NCBI RefSeq assembly: GCF_032062105.1
Contig: NW_026929671.1
Span: 310,001-374,000 of the forward strand
Length of the DNA stretch: 64,000 nt
DNA from: Saccostrea cucullata
Taxonomy: Eukaryota
Reading direction: 5' to 3'
A model generated the notes under the pieces. The model was not told where the DNA came from. It worked only from the letters and a program-made list of their open reading frames with translations, and searched no databases. Positions 18,541 to 63,327 of this stretch are shown piece by piece. The stretch's first letter is position 1; each line of letters starts with the position of its first letter. The translations under genes and the position numbers were made by a program.

Positions 18541-19535
18541 ATTCTGAAATCCTCATGGTTTTGAATTACATGATTGCGATGCTTAATGATGATTTAACCA
18601 ATTGAATTACATGATAATATTTTATGCAGAAAACACTAAAAAAAATGTTTTCATTTACGTACAGGACAACCCATATTACTTTTTTTTCTGTAAGTCAATA
18701 TGCATCTTTTCCCCTTTTTTGAACAAATACTTTTGTTTTTATCGAGCAACGTAGTTTTTACTTGAAATGGCTACTTTTTCTTTTATTGAATGTTTTTTTT
18801 TATTTATTTTTAAATTGCACTTTTTGGCTTCCTTTGTCATGTTTTGAACATTTATAGATAAGGAGTTGGTAGTAGGACAAACAGTTTTTGTTAGCTTGGA
18901 GGATTAGGTATTTTTGAAACTCTTAATATAAGAAGGTAAGGACTGGATTTTTCTTTTAAATTATTGCTGGTATATTTGATAAATGTTTATTTTTTCATAC
19001 TTCATCATTAGTTCTTTTTTGTATTCAAACCAGGCTTCTTTTCTCTGGGGGATCTGCATGTCTTGATCTGCTATGATTAAAATAAAATTCAAATTCATAG
19101 ACAGTCTAAATGACACAAGAATCTACCATCTTGTTTCTGAATGGGGCATTTCAAAACGTCAAAATTAATGAAATTTCCATGTTTTATGGAATACTTCAAA
19201 ACATAATAGACACAAAAGGATTTATACAACAAAAATCAAAACAAATGATTGAGAGAACCTCAAATTCCTATGTTATGAATATTAAAAGCGTATAGATAAT
19301 GCTTTTAAAAATATCCAACCATTATTTTTAAATTTTGTATTTTATTAAAGATGTTAAAAAAACATCTGCTTTAATTTTAAAATATTATTGTGATTGGCAA
19401 AGTATTGCGCAATGGAAACCCTAGTCACCCTCTTAGATTCTGATAAAGATATAATGTTTGAATGAACAAAATGTTTATATTCAAGATTAAGATGTATTAT
19501 TTTTAGAACTTATACATCATTTTTAGAACCACAAT

Positions 19536-21747
19536 ATGGATAGGCCAGGATACAGCGTCCAATATAAAGTACAACAGTGTTTTCAATGTCAACGGGACAA
19601 AGAATTCTACTGTTACACGTGTAAATATGATCTATGTTCAAAGTGTAAAACGATGCATGAAAAAAACTCTGATACTAAATACCACAACATTATGACATAT
19701 AAGACTCTTCGTGGAGAAAAAAGCGTTACTGTGCAATACAGAATTCGACAGTGTTCTCATTTTGTACAATGTGTGAATGTCTCAGAATTCTACTGTAGGG
19801 AGTGTGATCATGACATGTGTCAACAGTGTTTACTTCAACATGTATCAGCTCCATATTACAGAAACCATTATGCTAAGTTTTATCGTGAGAAATATAAACA
19901 CTTCTTCAAAGAGAAAACCTGTTTGGGACATCCAAACAGAAATAACGAAATAGACTATGGAACACTCAGTCCCCAATGTAAAGTTCGGCGGTGTTTTCAG
20001 TGTCAGGGGGACACAGAATAAGGGAGAGGTTTTTTTAAGTCAGGGAGAGGTTTTTTTAAGTTGCAAGAACTTGTTACCAATCCCATTGTATAAATTATAC
20101 AATAAAATATGTTCAAAACATCAAAACACAGAATTCTACTGTAACACGTGTAACCAAGACCTGTGTCTACAGTGTAAAGATGGACACGTTATTTATCTGG
20201 ATACCATGTACCATGATGTTGTGATTTATCGCGAGAAATTTGAAAACATTTCATTACAAAAGAGATGTGTCAAACATCCAGACAGAATCCATGAAATGTT
20301 TTGCGACTCGTGCAACTTTCCTATCTGTGTCCAATGTAAATTACACCAAAAACATCAAATACTGGATATAAGGAAAGCATATAAAACATACCGTCAACAA
20401 TACAAAAAAATATTTCATAAAATCAGACGTGAGATTCTCTATAACAGCTGCTTTCTGCTTGATGGAATCAAAAATGACATAGAGACTGTTCAGACAGGTA
20501 TCTCCAACCGTCGATCAGAAATTTCAGCAAGATTAAAGGCCATTATGGACACTGAGATACATGATTTTAAACTCAAATACAGATGCCATTTTATACAAAG
20601 GTTACAAGAACAAAATAGAAAAGTGTACAAACACCTTTCTTACATAGAAAACTTTGAACACGTATTTAAACGGTTATCAAACAGAGCGGTAAAATTTCTC
20701 TTCTTCGTAAAGAAAACAAGAGTTGCAAAGATAAAAGACATTTATTATCTGGCACAACACACTGCGTTTTATCTGACTGAAGAAATTAATATGAAAAATG
20801 TGACTAAGTTACTGAGTGAAATCAAAATCAAAGAGGAAGGAAAAAGACAAATAGAAAGTGTTTGTCAGCTGCAACTAATGTCAAAACCTACAAGTAAACT
20901 ACAAATCTCACTGACAGGAGTTAGCGGTGTCACACATATTTCCACTGCGACACCAGATCACGTCTGGTTCAGTGATGGTATCCATCTTTTTTTGGCAAAC
21001 GTTGAAGGTCACAACCTACATCATCTAAAGTGTATAAGACTGGTAAATTATGGGATACATACAGTGAACATGACGTGTGATCTTATTTATATAGATAGGG
21101 ATTATAACATTAAAAAGTTTTTTAAAGACACCAGATCTAAATCTACACTAATGAAGAAAAGATCACCATGGCTACCGCTCTGTGTGGTCTGCTCACCCTC
21201 CAACAATGACCTTCTGGTCGGGATGCTGAGCACTGATACTTGGGCAGGCAAAGTAACACGGTATAACAACGAAGGAAAAGTGATACAAACAATACAACAT
21301 GACACTGCAGGGCAGCAACTCTATTGTCTTCCAAGGTACATCACAGAGAACCGCAATGGAGATGTTATTGTGTCTGACCTTACCGATATTGATAATAATG
21401 ATTATGGCCGTGGTGCTGTAGTGGTCATAGATTATAAAGGAAGACATCGCTTCTCCTACACAGGCCACCCATCAGAGTCAGATCTCCTGCCCCATGGAAT
21501 CTGTACTGACACATTATCAAACATTCTGTTGTGTGATTCTAAGACCAACACAATACATTTGATCGATAAGGACGGCCATTTCATGATGCAGATTCAGACA
21601 CAGGATCAAGGGATAGGCAGACCAATGTGCCTGAGCTTTGATCATAAGAATCATCTTCTCTGGATCGGATCATGTGACAGCAACAAAGTGTGTGTATACA
21701 GATACATAGAGAGGAAAAACTATCTGAAAAATCATTGTGATGATTAA
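19536..21747 (+). pseudogene. B-box / coiled-coil / NHL-repeat (TRIM-like, RING-less) gene disrupted by a 115-bp frameshifting insertion
   Basis: ATG follows a ttttag acceptor. Three tandem CxxC..EFYCxxCxxD(L/M)CxxC..H B-boxes, then a CxKH..FCDSCNFPICVQC B-box, a coiled coil and an NHL propeller (PRYITENRNGDVIVSD, PHGICTD). ORFs 19536-20021 and 19957-21747 join in frame if the insertion is removed. Confidence 0.85.
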
Positions 21748-28430: not shown

Positions 28431-28553
28431 GATGCATGGCGAATGTATATTTTATGTACAGAGATAAAGAGCATACAAACAATACATATCGTGTTAAATA
28501 TGTAAGATGTTAAGATATTGTTGACATGCTATATTGTCTGCAATTCTTCCTTT

Positions 28554-29853
28554 TGTCACACTTAGATTTTGACTGTTTTTACACTTTTGTATAAATTCAT
28601 TCAGTCGCATATAAAGCCTCTATCAACGCGTTAATATTATTATTTAATAATTATATTTTACATTTTAAGATATGTGTCACGTATTTTCCTTAATTCAATA
28701 GTTTCTGATTGTTGTATAAATATTTAATATTTTGTTTACTTCATGGTTCAAACTTATTTTTTTAAATTGTGACATCTGAGTCTAATTGTATTTGATTATT
28801 TTTTAATCTTTGATGTACATGTAATTATTTTTTCTCACTGTCAGACAGATGTAATCCAATTAATTAATCAGTTCCAAGATGTCATAAGCGAGTACCTTGT
28901 TTTCTCATGTTGAGTTGTTTTCGCTTCAAATTGTTTATAACTGTCATTTAATTATCATTACTCGTTAATTGCCTTTTCACTAATTGTTATCTTAAAATCC
29001 TGAGTTTAATTTTTGATTGGTCCTTTTTCAAAACCTATTTCTTTAAATTGGGCAAGAGTTCGGAAATGCGCATCCATTCTATGATTGCGCTAATAAAGAC
29101 ATAACATTTATAATTCCCACTCTTCGCCTCTATTTCTAGGTATGTACTTGTATTTAAATTATTTACTTTTATCTTTCTTTTATATAAATTTAATGTATTT
29201 TGGAATTAATTAAGATTTGAATTAGTACACTGAAAAAAATAATTATGGTTTTTGTAAATACGCTTATTGCATTTATATCTTGTTTAATTATTTTGACAAT
29301 ATCAAATATAACTTAGCTAAAGTGAAATAAGACATATCAACAAGTACAACTCTTCTATGTAGGGAGAAAGAATTTTTGTAATTCTTAAATATGTAAATCG
29401 TTTTGAGAAGTGCATAATGACGAGCAAAAATTCTATTCTTAAAACTTTGTAAGAGCTGAAAATTTGTTAGCGATATGTAAATAATTATCTCTCTATTCCT
29501 AGCTGAATTAATTAATACTTGATTTTTTTTTATATATGTCTACTATGTCAAATAATTTGTACTTTGTTTTATTGTGAAAGTTGCTATGTTCTTTTGTCAC
29601 ATCCAGTCATCATCAATGTTTTTATGTATATATTCTGAACATTGATTTCAACTTGACTGTGTTACTTTAAGTTAAAGATCCATTCTATGATTGCGCTAAT
29701 AAAGACATAACATTTATAATTCCCACTCTTCGCCTCTATTTCTAGATCAAGGACAAACCTGATTGCAAGGATAGTCTAATTGACAAAAAGAATTGTCTCA
29801 ATATACGGATCGGGCTCAGTTAACAAAAAAACATACCCAAACCGTGTGAGACA
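28554..29853 (+). repeat. 5' LTR of element 1 (1300 bp)
   Basis: TGTCACAC...GTGTGAGACA. By eye it differs from the 3' LTR by 2 substitutions and 2 homopolymer indels. Confidence 0.97.
29015..29080 (+). promoter_or_regulatory. Putative LTR core promoter
   Basis: GATTGG (reverse CCAAT) at about 29015, TTTAAAT at 29042 and Inr-like CCATTC at 29074, with canonical spacing. Confidence 0.45.
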
Positions 29854-29856
29854 AAG

Positions 29857-29868
29857 TGGCGGAGATCC
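29857..29868 (+). other. Primer binding site, probably tRNA-Ala
   Basis: TGGCGGAGATCC lies 3 nt after the LTR and resembles the complement of the eukaryotic tRNA-Ala 3' end (TGGTGGAGATGC) with mismatches. Confidence 0.55.
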
Positions 29869-30018
29869 ATTCGACCCCAACCTCTCATTGCCAAGCTGAC
29901 GTGCTCTACCAGAGAAATTCCCCAAACTCAACAAATTCCCCACAGTTACTACAACTATACCATCTCTTTCAACGAAGTCAGCACCATCAAAGCATTCTTC
30001 ACGTGATTTATCTACATT

Positions 30019-31443
30019 ATGCCTGGACCTACAACTAGACTCCAATCGTCCAGTAGTTCTCTTTTCCGCCGCTTAGGATACAAACCAAATGTCCCACTAA
30101 ATTATCAAAAACAAGCGACTTCTACGAACAATCCCGAGATGGAAGCAACAGTCGCAATTGCAGCTGACAACTATCCCTATTCAGGGACAACATCTGCATC
30201 TTCATTGGCACCACCAAAAGATCCTCCCCCACCTCCACCTCAACTTCACCAAGAGACAGATACTTCCCAATGTGTTGAGAACAACTTGCCACCAACACCA
30301 ACTAGAAATGCCCTGTACCATTCTCAGAACGATCAACTTACTACAGACATAACGCACAACACAGCGATACCCGCAACACCAGCTGTCTATGCACCACCTC
30401 CACCTACACAGAGTAGTACGGCTGTTCCGCACACAGTACCAACATCAACATTTGTGCCTTACCCGCGCGCAAATATTAGCCTTGAACATTATGATGGAAA
30501 GACCTCCGCGACCCAATTCTGGACACAGTTTATGACCTACATAACACTAATGAACATACCGATCGAAGTTGCTCACGATTTCTTCTCTTTCTATTTAAAA
30601 GACGCAGCAAGAGACTGGTTCTTTCAACTTGCTCCAGAAATTCGGACATCTCTGGACCATCTGAAAGCTGCTTTCCTGACCCGTTTTAAACCACAAGTTC
30701 CTTTCAGTCTTGGATTATTCGATATAAAACAACAGAGTTCAGATTCAGTCGACCAGTATATTTTAAGAATTCAAAAGTTAGCCACTGACTCCACCATGCC
30801 GGAAGACTGTCTTACTACGATGATCATGAAAGGATTGCATGCCCCAATTCGAAAAATAGTGATGCCACAATTCCCACAAACTATAGAAAACTTGCGGAAT
30901 TCAGCTTCTATTGCAGAAATGACAATCAAAATGGATTCTCAAACACTTACAAACAATGATGAAAATAGTGTTATCAACGCCATGTCTGCAGTGTGTAATG
31001 TCACTAACCAGCTTCAACAAACAATTGCAGCTATGCATTCTAACGTACCAAACAACAACAGCTGGGATACTACTGCTCGATCGACTAACAGCAATTCACA
31101 GGATCATCCAACCCAATACAGTGTTCCTCCACCAAATCATTACCCCTCTGGACCTCGACCTAAATACAACCATAAGCCACCTCAATACCAACGTACACAG
31201 CAACAACACTACATGCAAGGTCCACGACAATTTTATCATCAAAGACCACGAGATAACTTCCCCGCTTCAACCAATTCCAATCCAGTTCCAGAACATTACT
31301 GTCATGGATGTGCAAGTGCTACATGTTTTTCTAAACTACATTGTCCAGCCAGAGGTCATTACTGTACTGAATGTGGCAGATACAATCATTTTGAAAAATT
31401 TTGTGTAACGAAATATCTTCGCAATTTCAACGGTTCACGCTAG
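30019..31443 (+). CDS. gag: Gag (474 aa) of element 1
   Basis: Retrotrans_gag-like core (YLKDAARDWF...LKAAFLTRF), Pro-rich N-terminus, C-terminal CTECGRYNHFEKFC zinc knuckle. Confidence 0.9.
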   Translation: MPGPTTRLQSSSSSLFRRLGYKPNVPLNYQKQATSTNNPEMEATVAIAADNYPYSGTTSASSLAPPKDPPPPPPQLHQETDTSQCVENNLPPTPTRNALYHSQNDQLTTDITHNTAIPATPAVYAPPPPTQSSTAVPHTVPTSTFVPYPRANISLEHYDGKTSATQFWTQFMTYITLMNIPIEVAHDFFSFYLKDAARDWFFQLAPEIRTSLDHLKAAFLTRFKPQVPFSLGLFDIKQQSSDSVDQYILRIQKLATDSTMPEDCLTTMIMKGLHAPIRKIVMPQFPQTIENLRNSASIAEMTIKMDSQTLTNNDENSVINAMSAVCNVTNQLQQTIAAMHSNVPNNNSWDTTARSTNSNSQDHPTQYSVPPPNHYPSGPRPKYNHKPPQYQRTQQQHYMQGPRQFYHQRPRDNFPASTNSNPVPEHYCHGCASATCFSKLHCPARGHYCTECGRYNHFEKFCVTKYLRNFNGSR

Positions 31444-34400
31444 GGACTCGCGCCTGTTCTTGGAGTAAAATCTAAGGATAGGCACCAGAGAAAGACTTCA
31501 TCACAACATGATCGGGAATCTGCTTCCATAAATTTGGCTACAACCTTAAAACAAAACAAAGTTGAAATTTCCGTCAAGACAAATCGTACTAATGCATTAT
31601 TGGATACCGGTGCAAGTATCACAGTAGCTAGTGCTTCTTTCATTAACAAAACAAGCCTCGCCGGTGCTTCATTTGAACCTGCTACACATCCAATCATCAA
31701 AGGTGTTACAGGTGCTAGACTCAACGTTCTTGGTGTGTTAACAATTCCTATATCTATTAGTGGTGTCAAATTTTCACATCCCGTCCATATCATACAAGAT
31801 CTTCATTATCCTTTCATTCTTGGAGTGGATTTCTTAAATCAACACAAGGCAAAGATTGATTTCGACTCCCAGTTATTGCTGCTTCCTGATGAAAACAATG
31901 ATATTCACAGCATTCGACTTTTATCTGCAGCCGAAGGACAAGCCCGAGCTTCTAAAACAGTGCTTATCCCGAAACAAAGTGAAACAAATGTACCTGTTAA
32001 CATTTCTCATTTAAAGAGCTGTGATAACGTTCTGTTGGATCCACACCCTTCTCTTTCCCATAAGAAGCAGCTTATTGCAGCAAGATGTTTAGTTCAAGTT
32101 GACAAAGGCAAGGCATACCTTCGCGTTATGAACCCGACACATTCAGATGTCGAAATTCAGGCTCGAACAATTCTTGCTTCTGTCATTCAAATAGATCAAC
32201 AAAATGTATTTTCTTTCGATTCACCTCCGAGTTCTACTACCTCTGATCAAAACGTGCAAGACAACAACCTAAACTTTGACCTCTCAACTTCTGATCTTAC
32301 CACTGAACAGAAGACAGTGCTACTGGACTTCCTGCGTGAGCACAGAGACTCTTTTGCATCTGATCTAAATGAACTAGGACGTACTGACTGCTACAAACAT
32401 AGGATAGATACTTTGCCGGGAACTCGACCTGTTCGACTGCCCCATTACAGAACAACTCCTCAAAATCTGACCGAAATTGACCGTCAAGTTAAAGAACTGT
32501 TAGAGAATGACATCATAGAACCTTCCAATTCCGAATGGCACTCCCCTGTCCTTCTTGTGAAGAAACCAACAGGTGAATTTCGTTTTGTTGTGGATTACCG
32601 CAAACTTAACAAATCAACCATACCAATGTCTTTCCCACTTCCTCAACTTGAAGATGTATTTGATTCTCTTGGAGCTTCTTCACCAAAATATTTCTCCTCA
32701 CTCGATCTTAAGAGTGGATTCTGGCAACTCGAAATGGACCCATCTACAAAACACAAAGCTGCCTTTATCACCCAAAGTGGCGTTTATGAATGGAAGAGGA
32801 TGCCGTTTGGACTCATGAATGCCCCAATTTCATTTCAAACTTTAATGACTAGTGTTCTTCGAAGCATTCATTGGAAATTTGTACTTTGTTACATTGACGA
32901 CATTCTTATCTTTTCGCCAACATTTGAAGATCACTTAAGACACCTGCACGAAGTTTTCGCTCGACTTAAACAGGCAAACCTTAAACTACAGCCATCGAAA
33001 TGCCATTTTGCTCTGAAAGAATTGAAATTCCTGGGCCACATCATAACACGTGAAGGAGTTGAAGTCGACCCTACAAAGACTGACACAATACGTCACTACC
33101 CAACTCCTACAACCCAAAAACAGGTTAGAAGCTTTTTGGGTATGGCGAATTATTACCGGAAATTCATCGAAGGTTTTTCCAAGATAGCTGCTCCGCTTAA
33201 CCCGCTTCTTGTAAAAAACACGAAGTTTTCTTGGACTCAAGAGTGTCAGACATCGTTCGAAACATTAAAACAAGCATTAATAACCGCTCCAGTTCTCTCT
33301 TATCCCGACCCATCCAAGACATTCATCCTGTCTTGTGACGCCTCTGATGCAGCAGTTGGATATACTTTAGGACAGAAGACCCTAGACAATAAAGAAGTTG
33401 TCATCGCCTATGGTGGAAAGTCGCTCACAAAAGAAGAAAAGAAATACACAACTTCAGAAAAAGAATTACTTGCTGTTGTTCGTGGTGTACAAGCTTATCG
33501 CCCATATCTTGCTGGGAAGAAATTCACCATCTACACAGATCATAAAGCCCTAATTTGGTTGAAAACAGCAAAACATACCGGAAGACTCGAACGTTGGGCG
33601 TTAAAACTCCAAGAATACAACTTCGATATTATCCACAAACCTGGAAAAAAAGAATTGCGTTGCCGATGCTATAAGCCGCATTCCTCATGAAACCTCTGAA
33701 ACAGCTGCCCCAATCTCTGTTATGTCGACTACGTTTCCACCAGCCTCTTCCTCTCAACAACCATCTGCGGACCAGCTCATCAACGAAAATGACATACAAG
33801 AAGGTATTCAAATCAAGTTCACTTATGATGAACCAGAGACTCTTATCATGGCTCTAGAAGACGATGAAATACACCAAATTCTCCAAGACAAAGACACTTT
33901 ATTTCAACTTCAAACAGCATGTCCTGATTACGTCGATATCGTCAAATACTTAACTGATGGTTCCCTACCAGAAGAACGCAAAGTCCGTGACAAAGTACTT
34001 TCAGAATCACAACATTATTGCATCATGGACGGCCTCTTATTTCACCTTTTTCAACGACGTTGCAAACGCCAACCGGAAGAAATGAAATTCATCTACCAAG
34101 TAGCTCTTCCTAGAGAACTTCGTAAAAATGCTTTGTTTGCCTACCATGACAGCCTTGCTGGCGGTGGACATCTTGGTATCGATAAAGTGCGCTTCTCTAT
34201 AATGCAGAAGTATTACTGGCCCAGGATGAATCAAGACATCATTGATTATGTGCGTTCATGTGATAGATGCCAGCGTGCCAAAAGGGACTTCCACCCTTCC
34301 AAACCTCCTATGACATCAATGCCACGCCGTGAAAAGTTTGAATCTTGGCAGATAGACATCCTAGGTCCACTCAAGAAATCATCTGAAGGATATGAATATA

Positions 34401-35652
34401 TTCTTCTCTGTATCGACTCCTTCACTCGTTGGCCTGAAGCATTTCCCCTGAAATCTCAGGATGCACAGGAGGTGGCTGAAGTATTGTTCCGGGACATATT
34501 TGCCAGATATGGTTCTCCATTGATTTTGATGTCGGATCGTGGTAGGAATTTCATGTCCAAACTTATCAACGCCTTGTGTGAAATATTCGAGATAACACAA
34601 TATCACACCTCTTCCTATCATCCGAACACTAATGGCCTTGTGGAGAGACAAAACAGTACCATAGCCCAATCTCTACGTGCATACTGTGCCAATGACCAAG
34701 ATAAGTGGCCAAAACTTCTCCCCGGCATAATGATGTCCTTTCGAAAATCTCCCCATCTTGGTTCGACAGAATTTGCGCCATTTGAGTTGATGTTTGGACA
34801 AGAAATGCGGTTACCTTTTGATGCATCCCTCCAACCAAAGGACAATTTACAACGCGATGCCAAGCAATACATGAAAGATCTCCTAGACCGGCTCAAAGTT
34901 TCAACTGATATCGCCAAAGCCAACGATCTCCACAATCAATCTAAAAACAAAGAATACCATGACAAAAATGCCAAGCCACCTGACTTTTCCATTGGAGATC
35001 TTGTCCTTATGAAGAATCACAAAGTCCCCACTGGTTTATCGCATAAGCTCTATGACAAGTCTGATGGACCGTACCGGATTGTTGGTAGAGGACAAAATTT
35101 CACCTACAAGCTGCGGCGCCTCTCAGACAACAAACTGCATGTTTCCATGATTAACGCAACGAACCTCAAGCATTACTATCCCCCCGAAGACTCGCGATCC
35201 CAGATGCCATCGTTCCACCAACTGATAATGATGATGCCCCGACAGTACCCCCTAATGATGGACCTTCTCAAGACAATCAACACCGACCCGATAATGACCA
35301 GGCCATCAACAATCCTCAAAATCAACTCCCTGATGCACGAGAACAACAAACTCCATCCCAACATGATCAGCAATTACCTGACAATTCTGTTTTGTTACAG
35401 GACAATCCCGCTGAGTCACGGCCACAACCCCCGCTTCCCGGAAACACGCAAAACACAAAGAAATGGAATTTCGAGAAAATCCTACGTGGTAAAATGAAAA
35501 ACGGTGTGCGCCATTTTCGCATCAAGTGGTTAGACGGAACAACCACTTGGGAGCCAGATACATGTTTTGATGCTGACGTTCTCCGTGATATCAATCGTAG
35601 ATTCACCATGACTGGAAAATTTCGCAAATCAAATTTCAAACGCACTGCATGA
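31444..35652 (+). CDS. pol: Pol of element 1: protease, RT, RNase H, integrase, chromodomain-like tail; two 1-nt frameshifts
   Basis: LLDTGA, YIDD, CDASD, HHCC and DDE integrase motifs, GPY motif. Frameshifts at the A7 run (33645-51; restores KPGKKNCVADAISR) and at about 35200, which joins the integrase to ORF 35392-35652. Confidence 0.92.
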
Positions 35653-36534
35653 GTCAATTTTATTTTCACCTTTTTTTTATATTGCTTCAATTATTACCAC
35701 AATCATGTCTATTTTTAAGCAATCTTAGACTTATACTTAACGTTTCTGTCTGTGACTTTTCAAGCCAATTATGATTTACACAAGAGGTACTCCACACTTT
35801 GAGTTTATGTATTGTAGGTAGTTAAGAATATGGTCACTTTTTGTGTAAGGTTTTATGTTGCATGCAACACATTACTTTTACTTTTATGTACAAAAAATTA
35901 TTATTTTAAATCAACTAAAAGAAATATTTTATGAGTTATAGTCGGTCACCCTTTAAGTAGGTTTCCTGCTGATAGTTAGTGCTGGATTGTTTAGCTGATC
36001 ACTAAACTTTCATCGATTGTGCTATATCTCATAACTCCATTTAGGTTTATTTCGGATCTGTAGGAAAACCTTCACATAATGTTTTGATCATGACTTTTTA
36101 CTTACGACTTGCATATTTTATTTTCATTGTGTTCACCTTAGAATCCTTAAGAGGAATGCTTTTCAGAGAATTTGATCTTCCTAATGCTTATCAGCAATTG
36201 TCGACCAGTTCTTTCATGCATACCTTGTGTTCTTCTGATGTGCTACTGTGTTACCAGATGCATCTATATGTAATTGGTTTGAATGGTTAAACAAATGAAA
36301 CTATTGTCGTGGTCAATATTGCGTTACCCAATCTGGATACTCCTATACATATAGAATCCATAATGCTTATAACAGAGTACAGTATCTAAAATGTTCTAGA
36401 TCCACATTTACATGATGTTACATAGCGAGATATATTGTATGCTTGCCCTATATGACAACGTTCAAGTCCAGATTTTCATCATTCAGTCTCATACAAAGCT
36501 TTGAGGGCCCAAAGCTATTGGGGCCATGGGGGTA

Positions 36535-37832
36535 TGTCACACTTAGATTTTGACTGTTTTTACACTTTTGTATAAATTCATTCAGTCGCATATAAAGCCT
36601 CTATCAACGCGTTAATATTATTATTTAATAATTATATTTTACATTTTAAGATATGTGTCACGTATTTTCCTTAATTCAATAGTTTCTGATTGTTGTATAA
36701 ATATTTAATATTTTGTTTACTTCATGGTTCAAACTTATTTTTTTAAATTGTGACATCTGAGTCTAATTGTATTTGATTATTTTTTAATCTTTGATGTACA
36801 TGTAATTATTTTTTCTCACTGTCAGACAGATGTAATCCAATTAATTAATCAGTTCCAAGATGTCATAAGCGAGTACCTTGTTTTCTCATGTTGAGTTGTT
36901 TTCGCTTCAAATTGTTTATAACTGTCATTTAATTATCATTACTCGTTAATTGCCTTTTCACTAATTGTTATCTTAAAATCCTGAGTTTAATTTTTGATTG
37001 GTCCTTTTTCAAAACCTATTTCTTTAAATTGGGCAAGAGTTCGGAAATGCGCATCCATTCTATAATTGCGCTAATAAAGACATAACATTTATAATTCCCA
37101 CTCTTCGCCTCTATTTCTAGGTATGTACTTGTATTTAAATTATTTACTTTTATCTTTCTTTTATATAAATTTAATGTATTTTGGAATTAATTAAGATTTG
37201 AATTAGTACACTGAAAAAAATAATTATGGTTTTTGTAAATACGCTTATTGCATTTATATCTTGTTTAATTATTTTGACAATATCAAATATAACTTAGCTA
37301 AAGGGAAATAAGACATATCAACAAGTACAACTCTTCTATGTAGGGAGAAAGAATTTTTGTAATTCTTAAATATGTAAATCGTTTTGAGAAGTGCATAATG
37401 ACGAGCAAAAATTCTATTCTTAAAACTTTGTAAGAGCTGAAAATTTGTTAGCGATATGTAAATAATTATCTCTCTATTCCTAGCTGAATTAATTAATACT
37501 TGATTTTTTTTATATATGTCTACTATGTCAAATAATTTGTACTTTGTTTTATTGTGAAAGTTGCTATGTTCTTTTGTCACATCCAGTCATCATCAATGTT
37601 TTTATGTATATATTCTGAACATTGATTTCAACTTGACTGTGTTACTTTAAGTTAAAGATCCATTCTATGATTGCGCTAATAAAGACATAACATTTATAAT
37701 TCCCACTCTTCGCCTCTATTTCTAGATCAAGGACAAACCTGATTGCAAGGATAGTCTAATTGACAAAAAGAATTGTCTCAATATACGGATCGGGCTCAGT
37801 TAACAAAAAACATACCCAAACCGTGTGAGACA
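36535..37832 (+). repeat. 3' LTR of element 1 (1298 bp)
   Basis: Near-identical to the 5' LTR; preceded by the G-rich tract GGGGCCATGGGGGTA. Confidence 0.97.
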
Positions 37833-40880: not shown

Positions 40881-41866
40881 AAAAAAAGATTTTGACTTAA
40901 GCTAAAGATGTTTCATGATCCCGGGGCCAGGTCTTCCAAAAATCTATTGGAATTCCCATAGGTACCAATATGTTATATTTTTGTATTGATATCTAGCATT
41001 TTTTATACTTTATTAAAAATCTTTTAAATGAAAAGAAGAAAAACACTTGCTTTGGCCTCAACTCTACCTTTAGATATATTGCAACACATGTGTGCACACT
41101 CACCGAATGGTTGTAGTACATGTACGTTAAAATATACTGAAAGGAAAAAGACACTTAGAGTAACATAATATGCAAATGTTTTTGACCGCATGACCGAAAG
41201 TTGCGAAATCTGGTCAGATGAGTATCTTGGTAACTATGAATATAAATCAGTGTTCAGAATTACTCAACCGTAAACATTGGAAAGTGCTAAAAAGCCACAA
41301 ATACCGCAACTTGATACTGTTTATATTGATGATCCTCTAACTGGCACATGCCCGTGATGTTTGTGTTTTTCGGCGTATTAACCCAAGGCCCACTGTAGCA
41401 TGGATTTATCAAGAACATCTCGAAATCAATCACATTCACCCTTTCGAAAGGTCTCCGTAAAGTCCATGTTTTTCTCATTTAAAATCTGTGGGACTAAGTT
41501 GAAGATAGGATTGAAATTGCCCAAACTGGTCTCTTTCAAAAAAGGTGTGCCTTGTTGAAAGGATTGAATAATATCTCTATTTGAAGGATAAACACATTAA
41601 TAAATTCAATGCAAAGGAGAGTCAAGGCTATGACAGATACGCGAAGGTGATTTTGAGTTAATGAGAAATTTCAATTTTCAATTTTGGGAGGTTTCGTCAT
41701 ATGAGTTTCAGTGATTCATGTGTAATGTGTATGTGTAATTATTATATTATATAAAAAAACAAAATTCCAAGATTTTTACCATGATCAAGGTGAACAGTAA
41801 TTGTTCTCATTAAACCTGGAACAAAATTCTAACTGTATAATTGGTTTATTAATTCATTTTCAGAAG

Positions 41867-43308
41867 ATGTCTTTGTCAAGCAAAGCCCAAAACAACATAG
41901 ACGTTTTGGCCTTTAGCATAAAGTGTAAAGTCCAGCAGTGTTCCGAGTGTCAAGGGGACACAGAATTCTACTGTAACACGTGTAAACATGATCTGTGCTT
42001 ACAGTGTAAAGAGAGACATGTTATTGATCTAGATACCATATACCATGATGTTGTGATTTACCGTGAGAAATATGGCTATATCCCAAAACAAGAGACTTGT
42101 GTGAGACATCCAGAGAGAGTATATTACAAGTACTGTCACTCATGTAAACTTCCTGTCTGTATCAAATGCAAAGAACACAGAGAACATAAAATCCGGGATA
42201 TAAAAAAAGTGTTTAAAACAAACCGAAAACAACATAGAGACATAGTTCACAATCTGAACAGTTGGCAAACAGACCAATTAAATTTCTGTTCTATCTAAAC
42301 ACCATATATGTTCCTAAAAGAAAAGACAATCCTTCTCTTGCACAACAAGCCCGGCTTTCTCTGACTGAAAAACTTAACAAGACTGATATAATTATGTTAC
42401 TGAGTGAAATCCGGGTACTAGAGACTGACAAAAGGAAAGTTAGAAACGAACATCTCTTAAGATTAATGGCTACACCGGTTTTACATAGATCTGTCACAGT
42501 TACAGATGTTCAGTGTATTGTTCATATTTCCGGTGTTACATCAGATCGGGTTTGGGTGACCGATGACGACAGTTTAATTTTGACAAATATAGCGGGTGAA
42601 ACACTTCATCATCTGACAGATAGAAGTGACTATTATGGAGGAATACACACGGTAAACAATTCCCGCGAACTTATTTACATAGACAGTGATGAGAACATAA
42701 ACAGATTAACTGAAGATAACAAAAAAATAACTACACTGATCAAGAAATCAGAACCATGGTTACCACTTTGTGTCTACTGTTCCACAGTAAATGGAGATCT
42801 ACTGGTTGGGATGAGAAATATTGATGCAGATAAAGGGAAGATAACTCGTTATAGCGACACAGGACATCACACACAGACAATATTATCACCTCAAAACACC
42901 GCTGGCAATATATATTACGAATATAGGGAACCTATATTCATCACAGAGAATCGCAATGGAGATATTATTGTGTCTGATTACACGCCTTATATGTTTGGCG
43001 CTGTAGTAGTGACAGATCGTAGAGGAAAATATCGTTTTTCCTATACAAGAACGCCATTTTCAAGAAATCAAATATGGCCACATGCAGTGTGTACAGACGC
43101 GCTACTAAATATCCTAGTGTGTGATTTAAATGATCACGTAATACATATGATTGACAAAGACGGGCATTTCTTGTCACTCCTATTGAATAAAGAACAACAT
43201 GGCAGACCAGAAGGCATGCATTACGATTACAAAACACATCTTTTATGGGTTGGAACAAGCACCAACAAAGTCCGTGTTTACAGACCCATAGAAAGGCATG
43301 GCTATTAA
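41867..43308 (+). pseudogene. B-box / NHL-repeat (TRIM-like) paralogue with a frameshifting deletion of the coiled coil
   Basis: ATG at 41867 follows a ttttcag acceptor. Two B-boxes (CSECQGDTEFYCNTC, CVRH..YCHSCKLPVC). At about 42255 the sequence jumps out of frame to SEQLANRPIKFLF, skipping about 80 aa present in the 19536 paralogue. The NHL domain is intact. Confidence 0.85.
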
Positions 43309-56133: not shown

Positions 56134-56286
56134 TGTTGTGGAACCGAATAGTTCGAGGTACGAGCTATCTAAAACCTGAATGAATTGGCAGTGTTGATGT
56201 CCCCTTACTTCAGTGAGCCTCGTGTCCGCGTGTGTCCCGACCACCGACCGTCTCCTGCAGTCCAGGACAGAAGCATCAGAACAACA
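56134..56286 (+). repeat. 5' LTR of element 2
   Basis: TGTTGTGG...ACAACA, a direct repeat of 63175-63327. Confidence 0.95.
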
Positions 56287-56287
56287 T

Positions 56288-56301
56288 TGGTGTCAGAAGT
56301 G
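56288..56301 (+). other. Primer binding site, tRNA-Leu
   Basis: TGGTGTCAGAAGTG is complementary to the 3' end of eukaryotic tRNA-Leu(CAG/CAA). Confidence 0.9.
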
Positions 56302-56711
56302 AAAACGTTTGACCCCGCTTACTTCCCGTTTTTCTTTCCTGCTAAATTTGCAAGTTTTGCGGATTTACTCCCCAGTAGGTATAGTGGAGGAAATTCGCTT
56401 TAATTTTTCATTCGTCTTTTTCATAAATTTTTTACTGATAAAACTAGAAGAAACAATAGAAATTTGTTGTTAAGTGTTTAATATAAGTGCTTTTTCTATC
56501 GAACTGTATAAAATCTAAATATCTTTTGGTTTTTGGTAAACTGTCATTTTGGCGCGTATCTAGGCTAGGTACGGAACGCAGTTATCATCATAATTATTAT
56601 TCACTGAGTCACATTTTTCTTGTGTGGATATTTTCAGTTTTAAATTGAGTTAGATTCACCTTATCTGATTTTTCTTTCCTATTACAAGAAATACAAAAGT
56701 ATATTCATTTT

Positions 56712-57482
56712 ATGTCACTGTCAAAACCCAAACTAGATAATTTTTTAAAGAGAAAAGCATCTCATAGACAAGGCAGTCTTTATTACACGCCCGTCCTTTT
56801 GTCAGATAGCAAGGGATTTGCAATCAAAAGAAAGATAGAACTAAATTTTGTTGAACCGGGCTGGCGTTCAGCCCCTGCTGTAGATTTGCTAGAAAATCAC
56901 TTGAAGAGAAATAGCGATAAAAAGTATTTAATCTATATTTGGTTAGGTACTTGCGACATATCGGTTAAAGAGGGAAAATTCACAAGAGTTAGGTCTTGGG
57001 ATAATACTGTAGTTGAACATATATTGTCTCAATATCATAGAGTTGTTGCAATAAGTAAACAGTATCCAAACATAAAAGTCAAATTTATTGAGGTGCCCTG
57101 CTTTTCTATTTTTGCTTTCAAGTTCAAAGGTCATACTGACCAAGATTCATTTAAGGTGCATGATATAGAAATTTGTAGGCAGGTGGAACAGCTAAATTGT
57201 GCACTCAGAGAAATTAATTCCAGCATCAATGAAAGAACTCTACCTTTTAACTGTGATCTAAAGAGACGTCGAAAGGATACAAATAAAAAGAAAGGCGGTT
57301 CCCCTAGAGTACGAGTGTCCTATAAATTTGCGGCATACTACGACGGCATTCATGCAGACACAGACTTAGCCCTTATCTGGACAAAACGTTTAACAGATGA
57401 CATTAATTTGAACTGTTTTAAGACTCTAGATGAAGATGTTTTAGACATTCTTGTACCAGAAGAAGAGTTGAGCTCTCTGTGA
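56712..57482 (+). CDS. SGNH/GDSL hydrolase-like protein (256 aa), accessory ORF of element 2
   Basis: Uninterrupted ORF with blocks in order: I VLLSDSKG, II PG, III IYIWLGTCD (GTND-like), V YDGIH. Confidence 0.75.
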   Translation: MSLSKPKLDNFLKRKASHRQGSLYYTPVLLSDSKGFAIKRKIELNFVEPGWRSAPAVDLLENHLKRNSDKKYLIYIWLGTCDISVKEGKFTRVRSWDNTVVEHILSQYHRVVAISKQYPNIKVKFIEVPCFSIFAFKFKGHTDQDSFKVHDIEICRQVEQLNCALREINSSINERTLPFNCDLKRRRKDTNKKKGGSPRVRVSYKFAAYYDGIHADTDLALIWTKRLTDDINLNCFKTLDEDVLDILVPEEELSSL

Positions 57483-57507
57483 AACTTTGTGGAACCAAAT
57501 TACAAAT

Positions 57508-59075
57508 ATGATAAACATAAATACCGCCTCTATAGATGAGCTCATTACCCTGGAAAGCATTGGTGCCCAACGAGCAGCAGCCATCATTAAACTAAGAGAT
57601 GAAAAAGGTTATATTACCATGAATGATATCGAAGAAAACCTGCGTAACACAGCATCCACGATACAGAAGTTACTGTATGCAGAACTAATTTCTTTTGAAA
57701 TATCACCTACACTTGTGGACTCTATCAAGGAGAGACAAGATGGAGAACATAAAAAGGCATTGGACAATGTGTCAAAGGAGTTTGGCGTGAAACTCGACCA
57801 AGTTCATGAGCACTATAGAGCTATGCAGAGAACTTATGAAGAAGAAATGAACAAAATGACAAAAATGATGGGAGAACTGGAAACAAAAAACTTTCAGAGA
57901 AAAAGTCAGAATCATTAGTCACTGGAAATATTGTTGACCACCTAGCACCACATGGTATCTATGGAATCAAAGATGATGGTCAAAAAAGCCTAAAGCTGGA
58001 GAAAAATACTCTAGGAGCAGAAGCCAGTGGAGGAGTAGCAAGTTGTGTTTCTGCTGACAGTGGCTTGGTTAATCCTGGCCCAACTAGCAGTGTATCACAA
58101 ACTAAATCTGGGAAAATAACTTTTACGAGTGGTGCTAATAGTGGCTTGAAACAATCTGGCCCATTTAAGACACACATCAGTTGACCCCCTCCTCCTAAGA
58201 TGGCTACATTTGACGGACGCAGTGAATGGTGCCCATTAAAAACCCAGTTCGATAGGATTGCAGAAAGATATAAATGGTCTGAGGATCAACGCTTGGAGAG
58301 ACTAATTGAGTCCCTAAGAGACAAAGCACTTAAATTCTATTGCACCTGTGCCAAACCAGTTCAAAATAACTACAAGGACCTATGCAAGATATTCAAGTCT
58401 AGATTTGGTCAAAAAGAATTACCCTTGACTGTAAGGCGAAAACTCCAAGACATAAAACAGGAAAATAAAACAGTTGAGGAATTCGCAGAAATAGTCCAGG
58501 AAATGGTTGCCGAGGGATATCCAGATGCTCCAGAAAGTGTTATAGATACTATTGCCACTGACACTTTTTTGAAAGGCATCGAAAACAAGCGTGCGGCACT
58601 AACAGCTATGGATAAAGACCCAACAACTTTAGAAAGTGCACTACAACAGGTCAAAGCAGCAATAAATAACCAAAGGCTAATTCTGGGAGTCCGTAAACCT
58701 GAAGTCAGGAAGGTTCGATTCAGCGATGCATACAGTGACAGTGACGAGGAGCCTGAATTTAGCTCACGTACAGTTCGTCCCCAGAGTCGTGTTGACAAGC
58801 TTGCTGCAGATGTTGACTCATTGAAACTAGGTCTGGAAGCAACCAATACCAAGATTGACAAACTTATTGGGCTCATTTCAAACCGTTCAAGATCCCCCCA
58901 GAGGACAACAACCCAATCCAGATTATCCTCTCCAGTGAAAGAAGGTGCCTGTTATAATTGTGGGGAAAAAGGCTACTTTGCAAAGGACTGCAAACAACAG
59001 CGTAAATCAAGATCACCATCCCCGCAAGCTAAAATAAGCCCTACATTTGATATGAGACTCTATCAATGCAAATAA
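57508..59075 (+). pseudogene. gag: Gag of element 2 with an N-terminal ComEA-like HhH domain, disrupted
   Basis: MININTASIDELITLESIGAQRAAAIIKLR, then a coiled coil. Frameshift at the A-run near 57888 and TGA near 58182. Capsid-like ATFDGRSEW and the knuckle CYNCGEKGYFAKDC follow. Confidence 0.85.
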
Positions 59076-62000
59076 GAACCACAAAATCTGATGATCAATG
59101 TGAAAGTTAACGGAAAACCAGAAAAGGCCATTGTAGATACAGCAGCACAAATATCGGTCATAAATAGAGAGTTTGCAAACTCGTTGACGCCACCTTTAAA
59201 TATTGGTAAGGAGGTGACTCTTAAGGCTGTAGGAGAGAACAGTTGGTTAAAAGCTAACTACTCAAACGATGCCAACATTGAAATTGAAGGGATTCAATTT
59301 AAATGGCCCGTTATAGTTGCAGACATAACTGATCAAGTGATTATTGGTCTTGACTTCCTTAGTGCCAACAATGCTCTGATTGACCTCAATGACCAAAGTA
59401 TAAGCATTCAAGGAATGAAACTTAAAGCCGAGGTGCTGAAAGCTGAGAAGAAACCAGTCAGTGTGGCCAGAGTGTTACTTAAAACCAAGCTTCGGATTCC
59501 GCCTCATACTTCCGTACACATAGTGGGCAAATTAGATAACATCCTTGAGGAGGAAGTCCTAATACAACCATCTAGAAGCATGAAAGGGTTACTCTCTCCC
59601 TATGCTATAACACAACAAGAATCTGCTGATGTACCTATCTTGCTCAAAAATGTGTCGGCTCATAGAGTAATCTTGCCAAAAAATCATGTTCTTGGAACAG
59701 CAACACCATTCGATGGAGTGATTGAGGACCCTGGGCAAATTCAGGATGAGGGATAAAGTTGTAAGACCTTCAAACACCTACCTAACTATCTGTTAGACTT
59801 GGAAAAGAGATCAATTGAGAATCTTTCCCAGAACGAGGCCAACAAGGTACATGATCTACTCATTGAATCTCAGGATGTTTTTTCAGCAGATGACATGGAC
59901 ATAGGCCTTTTCAAAGGAATCACACATAAAGTAAACACCAGGGGATTCGCAACCAGTCCGTGCCAAACTTAGACGTACACCACTAGGCTTTGAAAAGGAG
60001 GAAGAAGTCCACCTGAAGAATTTATTAGATAATGGAGTCATAGTTCCATCAAAGTCAGAATGGGCGTCTGCACCAGTACTGGTGCGCAAAAAAGATGGCA
60101 CTGTGCGGTACTGTGTTGACTTCCGGAAAGTAAATAGCCTTACCAAGAAAGATGCATTTCCCCTCCCAAATATTGAGGAATGCATGGATACCTTAAGTGG
60201 AAATGTCTTCTTAAGCACACTGGATATGGCCCAAGGCTATTACCAAATAGAAGTGGACCCAAATGACCGTCATAAACTGGCCTTCATAACAAAATATGGA
60301 TTGTATGAGTTTGTTAGAATGCCACTTGGCATGCAACAGTCCAGCCACATTTCAACGAATGATCCAGCTTGTTTTGCATGGACTAAATTGGAGGGAAAGC
60401 TTAGCCTATCTGGATGATGTTATTGTGCTGGGGACTTCATTCGACAACCACCTTCTCAACCTCAGAGCTATCCTTACCAGGTTTAGACAACATAATCTGA
60501 AATTAAAACCTAGGAAATGCTGTATGTTTCGAAAAGAAATACAGTTTTTGGGTAGAATTGTTAGCGAGAAAGGTGTATCTGTAACTCCGGATAGTATACA
60601 GTGTGTAGCCCAGTGGCCTGTACCAAGAAACCGAAAAGATGTGGAGACTTTCTTGGGATACATGAATTATCACAGAGAACACATCAAGAATTATGCTGCC
60701 CTGGCCTCCCCATTGTATGACCTTACCAAATCCAAAAGCACATTTGTTTGGGGTGAAGCACAAGACCATAGTTTTCATTCTCTAAGAAAGGCAATGTCAG
60801 AGCCAGCTATCTTAGCATTCCCTAAGCCTGATGGTTTATTCATACTTGACACGGATGCCTCGGATCATTCATTAGGTGCAGAATTATCACAAGTACAGAA
60901 TGGAAAAGAGGTACTCATAAGCTATGCAAGTAAAATCTTATCAGCTACCCAAAGACGTTACTGTGTAACAAGAAAGGAACTACTTGCCATTGTCGTCTTC
61001 ACACGACAATTCAGATTCTACCTCCTCGGACGCCCCTTCATTGTTCGCACAGACCACCACAGCTTAGCATGGCTTCTGGGTTTTAAAAATATAGAAGGAC
61101 AACTTGCGAGATGGTTGGAAGAACTCTCGCAGTACAATATGACTATTCAGCACCGCAGTGGGAAAGCACACAGCAATGCAGATGGACTCTCAAGGATACC
61201 TACGACAGATCCTCCATGTGACTGCTACGATGCTGGAAAGGGCATCAGTGAGTTGCCTTGTGGTGGATGTAAGTACTGTCAGAGAGTCCATGAACAATGG
61301 AGTAGATTTGCTGAGGATATCGATGATGTTGTTCCACTAGCTGTCCGTACGGCACAAACAGATTGGTGCTCAGAGGATTCTGAATCAGATAAGATCACTG
61401 ATGGATGTAACTGGTCTATACGTTTAGTCACAAGGAGCTGAGGGAAGCGCAAGAAAATGATCAGGATCTAAAATATCTTCTCCGTCGGAAAACAGAATGT
61501 GGTAGAGCTTTCTCTTGCTAGTCCAGCTGTAAAACACTGGTGGAACTCAAAAGAGCAACTTGCAACTGTTGATGGAGTGCTTTACTACATATGGTTTGAT
61601 GAGGATACAACATCTAAGACACCACTACTTCTTGTTCCAAAAGAACTAAGAGAAACAGTGCTGGCAGGCTGCCATGACTCCAAATTTGCAAGTCACCATG
61701 GACAGCAGAAGACCTTGCAGAGACTGCGCTCAAAATACATTTGGTATGGTGTAACCCAGGACTGCAAAAATTATGTTCAGTCTTGCAGAGAGTGCAGTGC
61801 AAGTAAAAAAAACCACATTCAACCAAAAGCTCCACTGGGCCAATTCCATGCAGGGATCCCTATGGAAAGAATACATATAGATATTCTAGGACCATTCATA
61901 GAATCAGCTAGAGGGAATCGCTACATTGTAATGATGATTGACCAGTTTACGAAGTGGCTAGAATGCAATGCCATTCCTAACCAAGGAGCAGAACAAGTGG

Positions 62001-62977
62001 CCTTGTCATTGGTTGAAAGATTCATTGCAAGAATGGGGTGTCCTCTTCAGATCCACTCGGATCAAGGTAGGAACTTCATGAGTGACTTATTTCAAAGATT
62101 ATGTAAAATGCTAGAGATCACAAAAACGCGCACAACTCCATACTGACCATGTGCAAATGGTCAAATAGAGCGGTACAATAGAACTATCCTACAGTCGATC
62201 CGTTGCTATTTAAAGAATGTGCGTTTCCAGCGACATCGGGATCGGCATTTGCAACTCATTGTCGGTGCTATAAGGGCCACTGTAAACAGACAAACCGGAT
62301 TCACCGCCAACAAAATGATGCTAGGACGAGAGATTTTACAACCTGTAGACATCATGACGGGTATGGGTGAAAATCAACAGCCTCGAGAACCATCTGACTA
62401 TGTGGAGGAGCTAGAAGAAGTAATGTCTCAGGTCCACGCTATTGCCAGAGAAAATCTACATACTGCACAAATGCGTCAAAAACGAACCTATGATTTGAAG
62501 CTTCACAACCACACATATGATGTTGGAGATGTAGTCTACATGATAAATTCATCAACAAAGATAGGACAATCTAAAAAGCTACAAAAACCTTGGATTGGTC
62601 CATTTGTTGTGACTCAGAAGTTGTCACCAGTTCTTTATCGCATAAAGAATCGGCGAAAGGAGAAAGTGGTCCATCATGATAGATTGAAGAAATGTTCTGA
62701 CCGTGACATCCCAGTGTGGCTGACCAGACTGAGACACACAGTGACAACAGCTGTACCGCCACAAGAACAAGAAGAAGAGGAGGAAGATGAATGCTACCTA
62801 GGAAACCTATATGGCGACCAGAGCGGAAACATTCCAAATCAAGATTCAAGAGCCCCCAACGATTCAGGTGAAAATCCTACAACCGCTTGTGATCCAAGCC
62901 CTACTTCAAGAGCTAACTCAAGGGAGCGTCGCCGTGTTAGGCTGCCAAAGGCCTTGGCAGATTATGATTTGTCCTGA
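59076..62977 (+). pseudogene. pol: Pol of element 2 (PR, RT, RNase H, IN) with several stops and frameshifts
   Basis: IVDTAA, YLDD, DTDAS, HHCC, DDE and WIGPF motifs. Lesions at about 59754, 59940, 60325, 61420-61500 and 62144. Confidence 0.92.
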
Positions 62978-63174
62978 GCAAGTACATCATTATTCTAAGG
63001 TCAGAATGTTTATATCTGTAAATACGTTATTATTTACTTTTCAGGCATTCAGTTAAAATTGATATTTTCAGTTAATTTGTATTAATTAATACTTGTATTT
63101 TGTGGCTTGCTAATGCTGGCCCAGACTATCAACTTTAAGCTTTATACAAGGGATTTAAATAAAACGGGGAGGAG

Positions 63175-63327
63175 TGTTGTGGAACCGAATAGTTCGAGAT
63201 ACGAGCTATCTAAAACCTGAATGAATTGGCAGTGTTCATGTCCCCTTACTTCAGTGAGCCTCGTGTCCGCGTGTGTCCCGACCACCGACCGTCTCCTACA
63301 GTCCAGGACAGAAGCATCAGCACAACA
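63175..63327 (+). repeat. 3' LTR of element 2
   Basis: Follows the PPT and is followed by the ATAT TSD. Confidence 0.95.

Follow-up and report, generated by a model that had tools for sequence, protein, structure and literature searches.

Results

Structure of the retrotransposon

The window, that is, the whole 64,000-nucleotide stretch of Saccostrea cucullata DNA analyzed here, carries a full-length Ty3/Gypsy LTR retrotransposon, whose parts, all on the forward (+) strand, are as follows.

28554..37832 (+), full-length Ty3/Gypsy LTR retrotransposon, with a CTTT target-site duplication on both sides
28554..29853 (+), 5' LTR, 1300 bp, TG...CA
28554..29071 (+), U3-like part, 518 bp; ATTGG at 29016 and TTTAAA at 29042-29047; predicted promoter
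29072..29139 (+), 68-bp unit, copy 1 of the 5' LTR, predicted exon 1; AATAAA at 29092; ends in TAG
29140..29677 (+), AT-rich spacer, 538 bp; starts with GTATGT and ends with AAG
29678..29745 (+), 68-bp unit, copy 2 of the 5' LTR; AATAAA at 29698; pyrimidine tract and TAG
29746..29853 (+), U5-like part, 108 bp; begins with ATC
29857..29868 (+), PBS-like sequence TGGCGGAG..., beginning 3 nt past the LTR; putative site
30019..31443 (+), gag, 474 aa; Pfam PF03732; stop codon TAG in frame with pol
31444..35652 (+), pol, PR-RT-RH-IN; three overlapping frames at 31444-33690, 33605-35497, and 35155-35652
36520..36534 (+), PPT-like G runs; LTR junction GGGGTA/TGT
36535..37832 (+), 3' LTR, 1298 bp; layout as in the 5' LTR
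37053..37120 (+), 68-bp unit, copy 1 of the 3' LTR; one G>A, then GTATGT
37658..37725 (+), 68-bp unit, copy 2 of the 3' LTR; AATAAA at 37678; predicted cleavage at CA, 37704-37705

The assignment to Ty3/Gypsy follows from the paired LTRs (1300 + 1298 bp) with TG...CA ends and a 4-bp target-site duplication, from gag followed by a pol in which the Pfam domains run PR-RT-RH-IN with integrase after RT-RNase H, and from the PBS-like site after the 5' LTR and the PPT-like site before the 3' LTR. At the PBS position, TGGTGGAG was found in three related elements (L002, L003, and L207, described below). The best named homologues are Mytilus proteins (63%), which makes a bivalve host likely. No env ORF of the errantivirus kind was found, the 882 bp between pol and the 3' LTR containing no ORF of at least 120 aa. 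The two LTRs differ by only 2 substitutions and 2 one-base indels, indicating a young insertion. Given its three frames, pol of this copy is, as far as the sequence tells, broken or mis-assembled. The TAG of gag (window 31441-31449) stands directly in frame with pol, which suggests a possible stop-codon read-through from gag into pol.

A repeated 68-bp unit in both LTRs

The earlier note had described four copies of a 68-bp unit in this element, and all four were found again at 29072-29139, 29678-29745, 37053-37120, and 37658-37725, the single G>A in the third of them corresponding to position 29083. Each LTR thus has the order U3 (518), unit, spacer (538), unit, and U5 (108). As the note had also claimed, each LTR has GTATGT right after copy 1 and a pyrimidine tract with TAG at the end of copy 2, and excision of 29140-29745 joins one copy to U5. 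Apart from this unit, no exact direct repeat in the LTR exceeds 11 nt, and 200 base shuffles of the LTR reached at most 14 nt; the 68-bp repeat is real and non-random, far beyond chance.

Two further features, both absent from the earlier note, were found at the edges of these segments. Copy 2 is also preceded by AG, so that copy 2 and U5 both start as AG/ATC. Moreover, the 7-mer GGTATGT at the LTR donor recurs, with all 7 nt identical, at the junction of the PPT and the 3' LTR (36529-36539), which is itself donor-like at 36532 (-6.5 kcal/mol with U1). The possibility that the spacer is a diverged duplicate of U3 was rejected, because no homology between the two was detected in six scoring schemes, in the best case of which 7/100 shuffles reached the score.

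Splice-like, promoter-like, and poly(A) signals

The splice-signal anatomy proposed earlier was upheld by ranking controls, in which the donor and acceptor sites came out on top within the LTR. The 1300-bp LTR contains a single AG/GT, at the right edge of copy 1, and the donor at this edge forms the best U1 duplex among the 70 GT sites of the LTR (-8.1 kcal/mol), ranking 2nd of 343 in 28554-36534; the motif used for this scoring is that of the U1 5' end. The final TAG of the unit is the best acceptor-like site of the 45 AG in the LTR, copies 1 and 2 being tied by their same sequence, with 17/20 pyrimidines before it and no other AG for 41 nt. A strong GT donor, a pyrimidine tract, and a YAG acceptor, that is, the signals of a U2-type intron, are therefore present by simple scores, as distinct from a trained model. 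The AG preceding copy 2 is weak (11/20 pyrimidines, with a further AG 6 nt upstream).

The motifs before copy 1, namely, ATTGG at 29016, TTTAAA at 29042-29047 (30 nt upstream of the unit), and the initiator-like CCATTCT at 29074, are presumably those of a promoter; promoter-like motifs precede copy 1 and not copy 2, and a transcription start near copy 1 is predicted from them. The gag leader would contain 14 ATGs if unspliced and 1 in the predicted spliced form. The units hold the only AATAAA/ATTAAA signals of the LTR and 3' UTR, and from 33394 to the end of the element A[AT]TAAA occurs only within them. The pyrimidine tract of the unit may be an ordinary U-rich downstream poly(A) element, and in the distant elements L221, L230, L215, and L086, 13-15/20 pyrimidines plus YAG are found at a similar distance. 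Folding of the unit alone gave no stable structure (-0.1 kcal/mol), leaving a poly(A) hairpin unsupported. Each unit also contains CTAAT (in the region of 29096-29101 and 29702-29707), a branch-point-like motif that overlaps AATAAA; through this overlap, splicing and cleavage could come into competition for the site.

Sequencing reads over the LTR

Reads over 28454-31453 were examined in four of 24 listed runs, including X2 (guessed to be DNA) and X7 (guessed to be RNA). In X2, the spacer depth was 323-491, compared with 215-610 for U3, and since the spacer is as deep as U3, intron-less LTRs are not dominant in that sample. X2 also contains a variant of the spacer end that continues into copy 2, and this, together with the equal depth of spacer and U3, indicates that the layout is common to other copies and samples. 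Contigs of X2 and X7, which come from other samples, span the joins from U3 to unit, unit to spacer, and unit to U5. Among 40 of 144 differences listed, both differ from the window by ~2-3% in U3 and spacer, and none lies inside the unit. Two contigs of X7 start at the same offset in the unit, one running into the spacer (depth 23.6) and the other into U5 (10.7), although contigs cannot show splicing.

The two raw oligo-dT RNA runs yielded 6 and 47 reads, the majority of the 47 falling on an unrelated short match. Neither a spliced joint nor a start or end site was listed in any of the four runs. In the oligo-dT sample X16, a few reads lay over copy 1 and the spacer and none over U5 (depth at most 3.2), too few to count, and this coverage fits a read-through of copy 1. 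The search for reads across the junction 29139^29746, which had been proposed as a check, is insufficient alone, because a spliced RNA starting in copy 1 maps gap-free to copy 2 plus U5; as copy 2 plus U5 equals the spliced product, a spliced read would look like a start at copy 2. Deleted LTR variants were seen in other samples, with joints at 28656-29556 and 28997-29080, one of which lacks both the predicted promoter and the beginning of copy 1.

Relatives of the element

Related elements were taken from two bins labelled bacterial, G001 and G002 (loci L001-L005 and L206-L285), from which 80 regions were retrieved. The Gypsy contigs of these bins are apparently contamination by an animal host; with 156 (G001) and 31 (G002) matches to the Gypsy pol model, several having F-type env-like ORFs, the bins serve as a useful library of invertebrate retroelements. 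In RT-RH, L001 and L002 share 83% identity, and each has 56% identity to the window element. In a quick tree, built from a selection of 36 rows and holding only loci of this analysis and none of the named mollusc clades MolGy1-16, C, and AB, they and L207 group with the window element (SH-aLRT 81). Among the close relatives, L001, L206, and L207 have an env-like F-type ORF.

The promoter and R of L001 and L002 align over ~190 nt, a score reached by 0/300 shuffles, and the alignment ends exactly at CAG, ~50 nt past AATAAA. Beyond this CAG, L001 continues with GTTAGT, the best of its 57 GT sites (-9.8 kcal/mol) and unlike its own PPT junction, and its contig stops 64 nt past the donor at ...TTTTAG, whereas L002 runs directly into U5 and the PBS. 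Read from these sequences, L001 has, and L002 lacks, a segment starting with a donor at one and the same R/U5 base, and the lineage of these two elements is distant from that of the window element. The 64 nt of L001 may be a complete short GT...AG intron without a second unit, and the intron-less form of L002 could be a collapsed assembly. Neither a second copy of the R end of L001 or L002 in G001 or G002 nor a close 5' partner for L001 was found.

The window element, L002, L003, and L207 share an AATAAA followed, 40-53 nt on and before a short U5, by at least 15/20 pyrimidines plus YAG. In sequence, the unit bears no significant resemblance to the LTRs of L001, L002, and L207, with which it shares only the layout. 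Its likeness to the LTR of L003, which is apparently whole and contains no duplicate, was rejected as chance (156/300 shuffles reach it). In L206, a 91-bp LTR repeat around a run of N (L206:4315-4596, ending ...AAAG/G) was set aside because it includes a TATA-like start; it is probably a scaffold overlap, as L234, L241, and L264 have X-N-X joins of the same kind, although the run of N could hide an unresolved spacer.

A survey of related LTRs for the arrangement unit-GT...unit-AG, proposed earlier as a check, did not bear out its occurrence elsewhere: besides the window, none was found among 252 distinct Gypsy loci, an LTR pair being present in only 18/252 and in 0/11 of the loci with at least 50% RT identity, so that the test is weak. 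The duplicate-unit layout was also not found in further checks of 25 and 40 loci, and no closer elements were found in 201 genomes of the family of the G001/G002 bins. The metagenome scan covered 2/64 parts. Four protein scans of viral contigs gave nothing close, three having no matches and one giving 16 loci at 35-42%; a 17-nt pattern of the unit had 30 matches in viral contigs, which were taken as chance. The loose motif AATAAA...YYYYAG/GT was near chance in four bins (17 matches vs 13 controls). A donor-motif scan yielded 1 non-window match, L001, in 1.69 Mb, and it is not independent, because it included GTTAGT, chosen after L001 had been seen.

Discussion

A possible split R region and its alternatives

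We tentatively favor, at somewhat less than an even chance, a split R region, in which the RNA is spliced at its 5' end and polyadenylated in copy 2 of the 3' LTR and the intron is rebuilt at strand transfer. The observations behind it are the repeat, its boundaries, the splice-site ranking, and the presence/absence breakpoint in two distant families. The RNA would start near 29072-29076, at copy 1, and efficient cap-near splicing would leave one unit joined to U5, removing 13/14 upstream ATGs. In the 3' LTR, U1 at the donor would block cleavage at copy 1, and cleavage in copy 2 would fall upstream of its AG, making the intron incomplete there. Strong-stop DNA (unit + U5) would then anneal to the terminal copy 2 and rebuild an intron-bearing LTR, the daughter copy 2 being copied from the parental exon 1 in each cycle; such a transfer to copy 2 would account for the unit's length of exactly one predicted exon and for the acceptor-like end of this exon. 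Transfer to copy 1 instead would give intron-less daughters, the form found in L002. Because the intron lies wholly before the PBS, the spliced RNA should stay packageable. Split R plausibly accounts for both repeat edges, the identity of the copies, the acceptor-like exon end, and the persistence of an intron before the PBS, and a self-rebuilding mechanism of this kind is plausible. Against it, both LTRs carry every signal, so that position alone must decide between splicing and cleavage. Moreover, with ~7 kb devoid of an acceptor, the 3' donor may be poorly recognized, favoring cleavage at copy 1, and L001 possibly holds a complete short intron without a second unit, while the LTR of L003 has no duplicate.

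The AG before copy 2 and the ATC in common with U5 fit equally well a real intron under ordinary retroviral logic, which we consider rather unlikely. According to this alternative, R is copy 1, the unspliced genome is packaged (with a long U5), the spliced RNA is translated, and polyadenylation occurs at copy 1 of the 3' LTR, copy 2 being a one-off insertion made by a jump of reverse transcriptase from the capped end of spliced RNA to an old acceptor, AAG/ATC, of unspliced RNA. Such an event explains both repeat edges together with the shared AG/ATC, L001 may represent the unduplicated ancestor type (with its 64-nt GT...AG intron) and L002 a precise intron loss, and a GU-rich sequence lies 3' of copy 1. 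An intron within an LTR has a precedent in HTLV-1 (10.1101/2023.01.28.526022), and its retention through transposition has one in Penelope (PMC2377424), both according to the available parts of these reports. However, the spliced RNA keeps the PBS and should yield intron-less daughters, yet the spacer in X2 is as deep as U3; the supposed old acceptor is weak; and the copies are identical although X2 and X7 have diverged from the window in U3 and spacer, as far as the listed differences tell.

Still less probable, and in our view unlikely, is a composite LTR of the form U3a-R-U3b-R-U5 that is never spliced. The spacer would then be DNA captured from elsewhere, such as a foreign U3, and copy 2 would serve for both the start and polyadenylation, leaving copy 1 as a passenger. 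At 538 bp, the spacer is near U3 (518 bp) in length and opens with the GGTATGT of the PPT/LTR junction, the read depth patterns fit this arrangement and split R alike, and the near-chance frequency of AATAAA...YYYYAG/GT in the four bins is in its favor. It is opposed by the absence of spacer/U3 homology in all six scoring schemes, by the position of the promoter-like motifs before copy 1 and not copy 2, and by L001, whose donor at the same place is GTTAGT, unlike its PPT junction. An assembly artefact, or a duplication private to one insertion, is very improbable: only one assembly is available and its pol is in three frames, but the layout occurs in both LTRs, each with independent small differences, and X2 and X7 contigs from other samples span the joins, X2 with its variant spacer end into copy 2. 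The artefact reading is thus already largely refuted.

Comparison with known systems

In its LTR ends, target-site duplication, PBS, PPT, gag, and pol order, the element agrees with bivalve Ty3/Gypsy elements (Metaviridae) related to the env-bearing 'ancient errantiviruses', as described in the available part of PMC13524379, from which it differs by having no env ORF and by an LTR with a duplicated unit around an intron-like spacer. In the part available of a mollusc survey (PMC6238403), the words 'intron' and 'splic' are absent.

The earlier note had likened the proposed masking of copy 1 by U1 to that in the HIV-1 5' LTR. The analogy is loose: the proximity of donor and poly(A) signal is common to both, whereas the HIV-1 3' end is without a donor, according to the available part of PMC3694450, and here both LTRs carry every signal, so that another factor must break the symmetry. 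The same portion of that source describes foamy virus, in which R of both LTRs contains the donor and U1 controls polyadenylation (PMC3694450). In foamy virus and HIV-1, a splice donor and the LTR poly(A) signal thus likewise lie near each other; however, each LTR of these viruses has a single R, and their packaged RNA is unspliced (as far as that portion goes), whereas in the window a signal lies both before and after the donor and the acceptor is inside the LTR. The foamy-type geometry, with the donor upstream of the poly(A) signal, fits only copy 2 of the window element, where suppression by U1 is putative.

The genome of HTLV-1 is unspliced, and its LTR intron is inherited and not rebuilt. 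As in the window element, donor and acceptor both lie within the HTLV-1 LTR, but no duplicated exon is described in the available part of the report (10.1101/2023.01.28.526022). Penelope-like elements likewise keep a 5' intron near the start through transposition, and this intron aids expression; they are, however, of the GIY-YIG endonuclease class, and the part of PMC2377424 at hand ascribes the retention to selection on unspliced RNA, not to rebuilding. The window element contains integrase domains, in contrast to the integrase-free GIY-YIG class. In split-intron retroviral vectors (available text of PMC3182074, citing Ismail et al. 2000), a splice signal is carried from one LTR to the other during reverse transcription, giving the provirus a working intron, although these vectors are engineered, single-round, built to remove the packaging signal, and not heritable. 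In intron birth by segmental duplication, one copy gives the donor and the other the acceptor, as in the window (PMC3265369, in the part available). Here, however, in contrast to tandem AG/GT duplications, unrelated DNA (the spacer) separates the copies, and the bases after copy 2 are AT. Collectively, the element bears a partial likeness to U1 control, HTLV-1, Penelope, split-intron vectors, and intron birth, and is a match to none of them. A natural LTR retrotransposon with an exon duplicate as R was not found in a literature search of titles and abstract starts, which took in few subscription papers and neither supplements nor Repbase, and a prior description is possible.

When spliced RNA is reverse transcribed, its introns are expected to be lost. 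If true, split R would be a purely cis-acting way around both this loss and intron-based recognition; in the human HUSH system, the absence of introns is one mark by which the host recognizes retroelement DNA, according to the available part of PMC8770142. It would, moreover, clean the leader, reducing the upstream ATGs from 14 to 1, and would provide a route by which LTRs could gain or lose introns. More generally, it is conceivable, though on balance doubtful, that LTR retrotransposons provide a general route for spliceosomal introns through reverse transcription of spliced RNA, with exon 1 duplicated at the 3' end of the intron as R, in animal Gypsy elements (the window element and possibly the L001 lineage), whose new insertions would resemble intron-bearing host genes.

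Other features of the window

A second, unrelated Gypsy element lies at window 56134-63327, with LTRs of ~153 bp that are 97% alike, gag, and a pol split over several frames; no internal LTR repeat of the 68-bp-unit kind was listed for it. Two related B-box/NHL (TRIM-like) genes, at window 19527-21747 and 41801-43308, flank the element at 28554-37832 at a distance.
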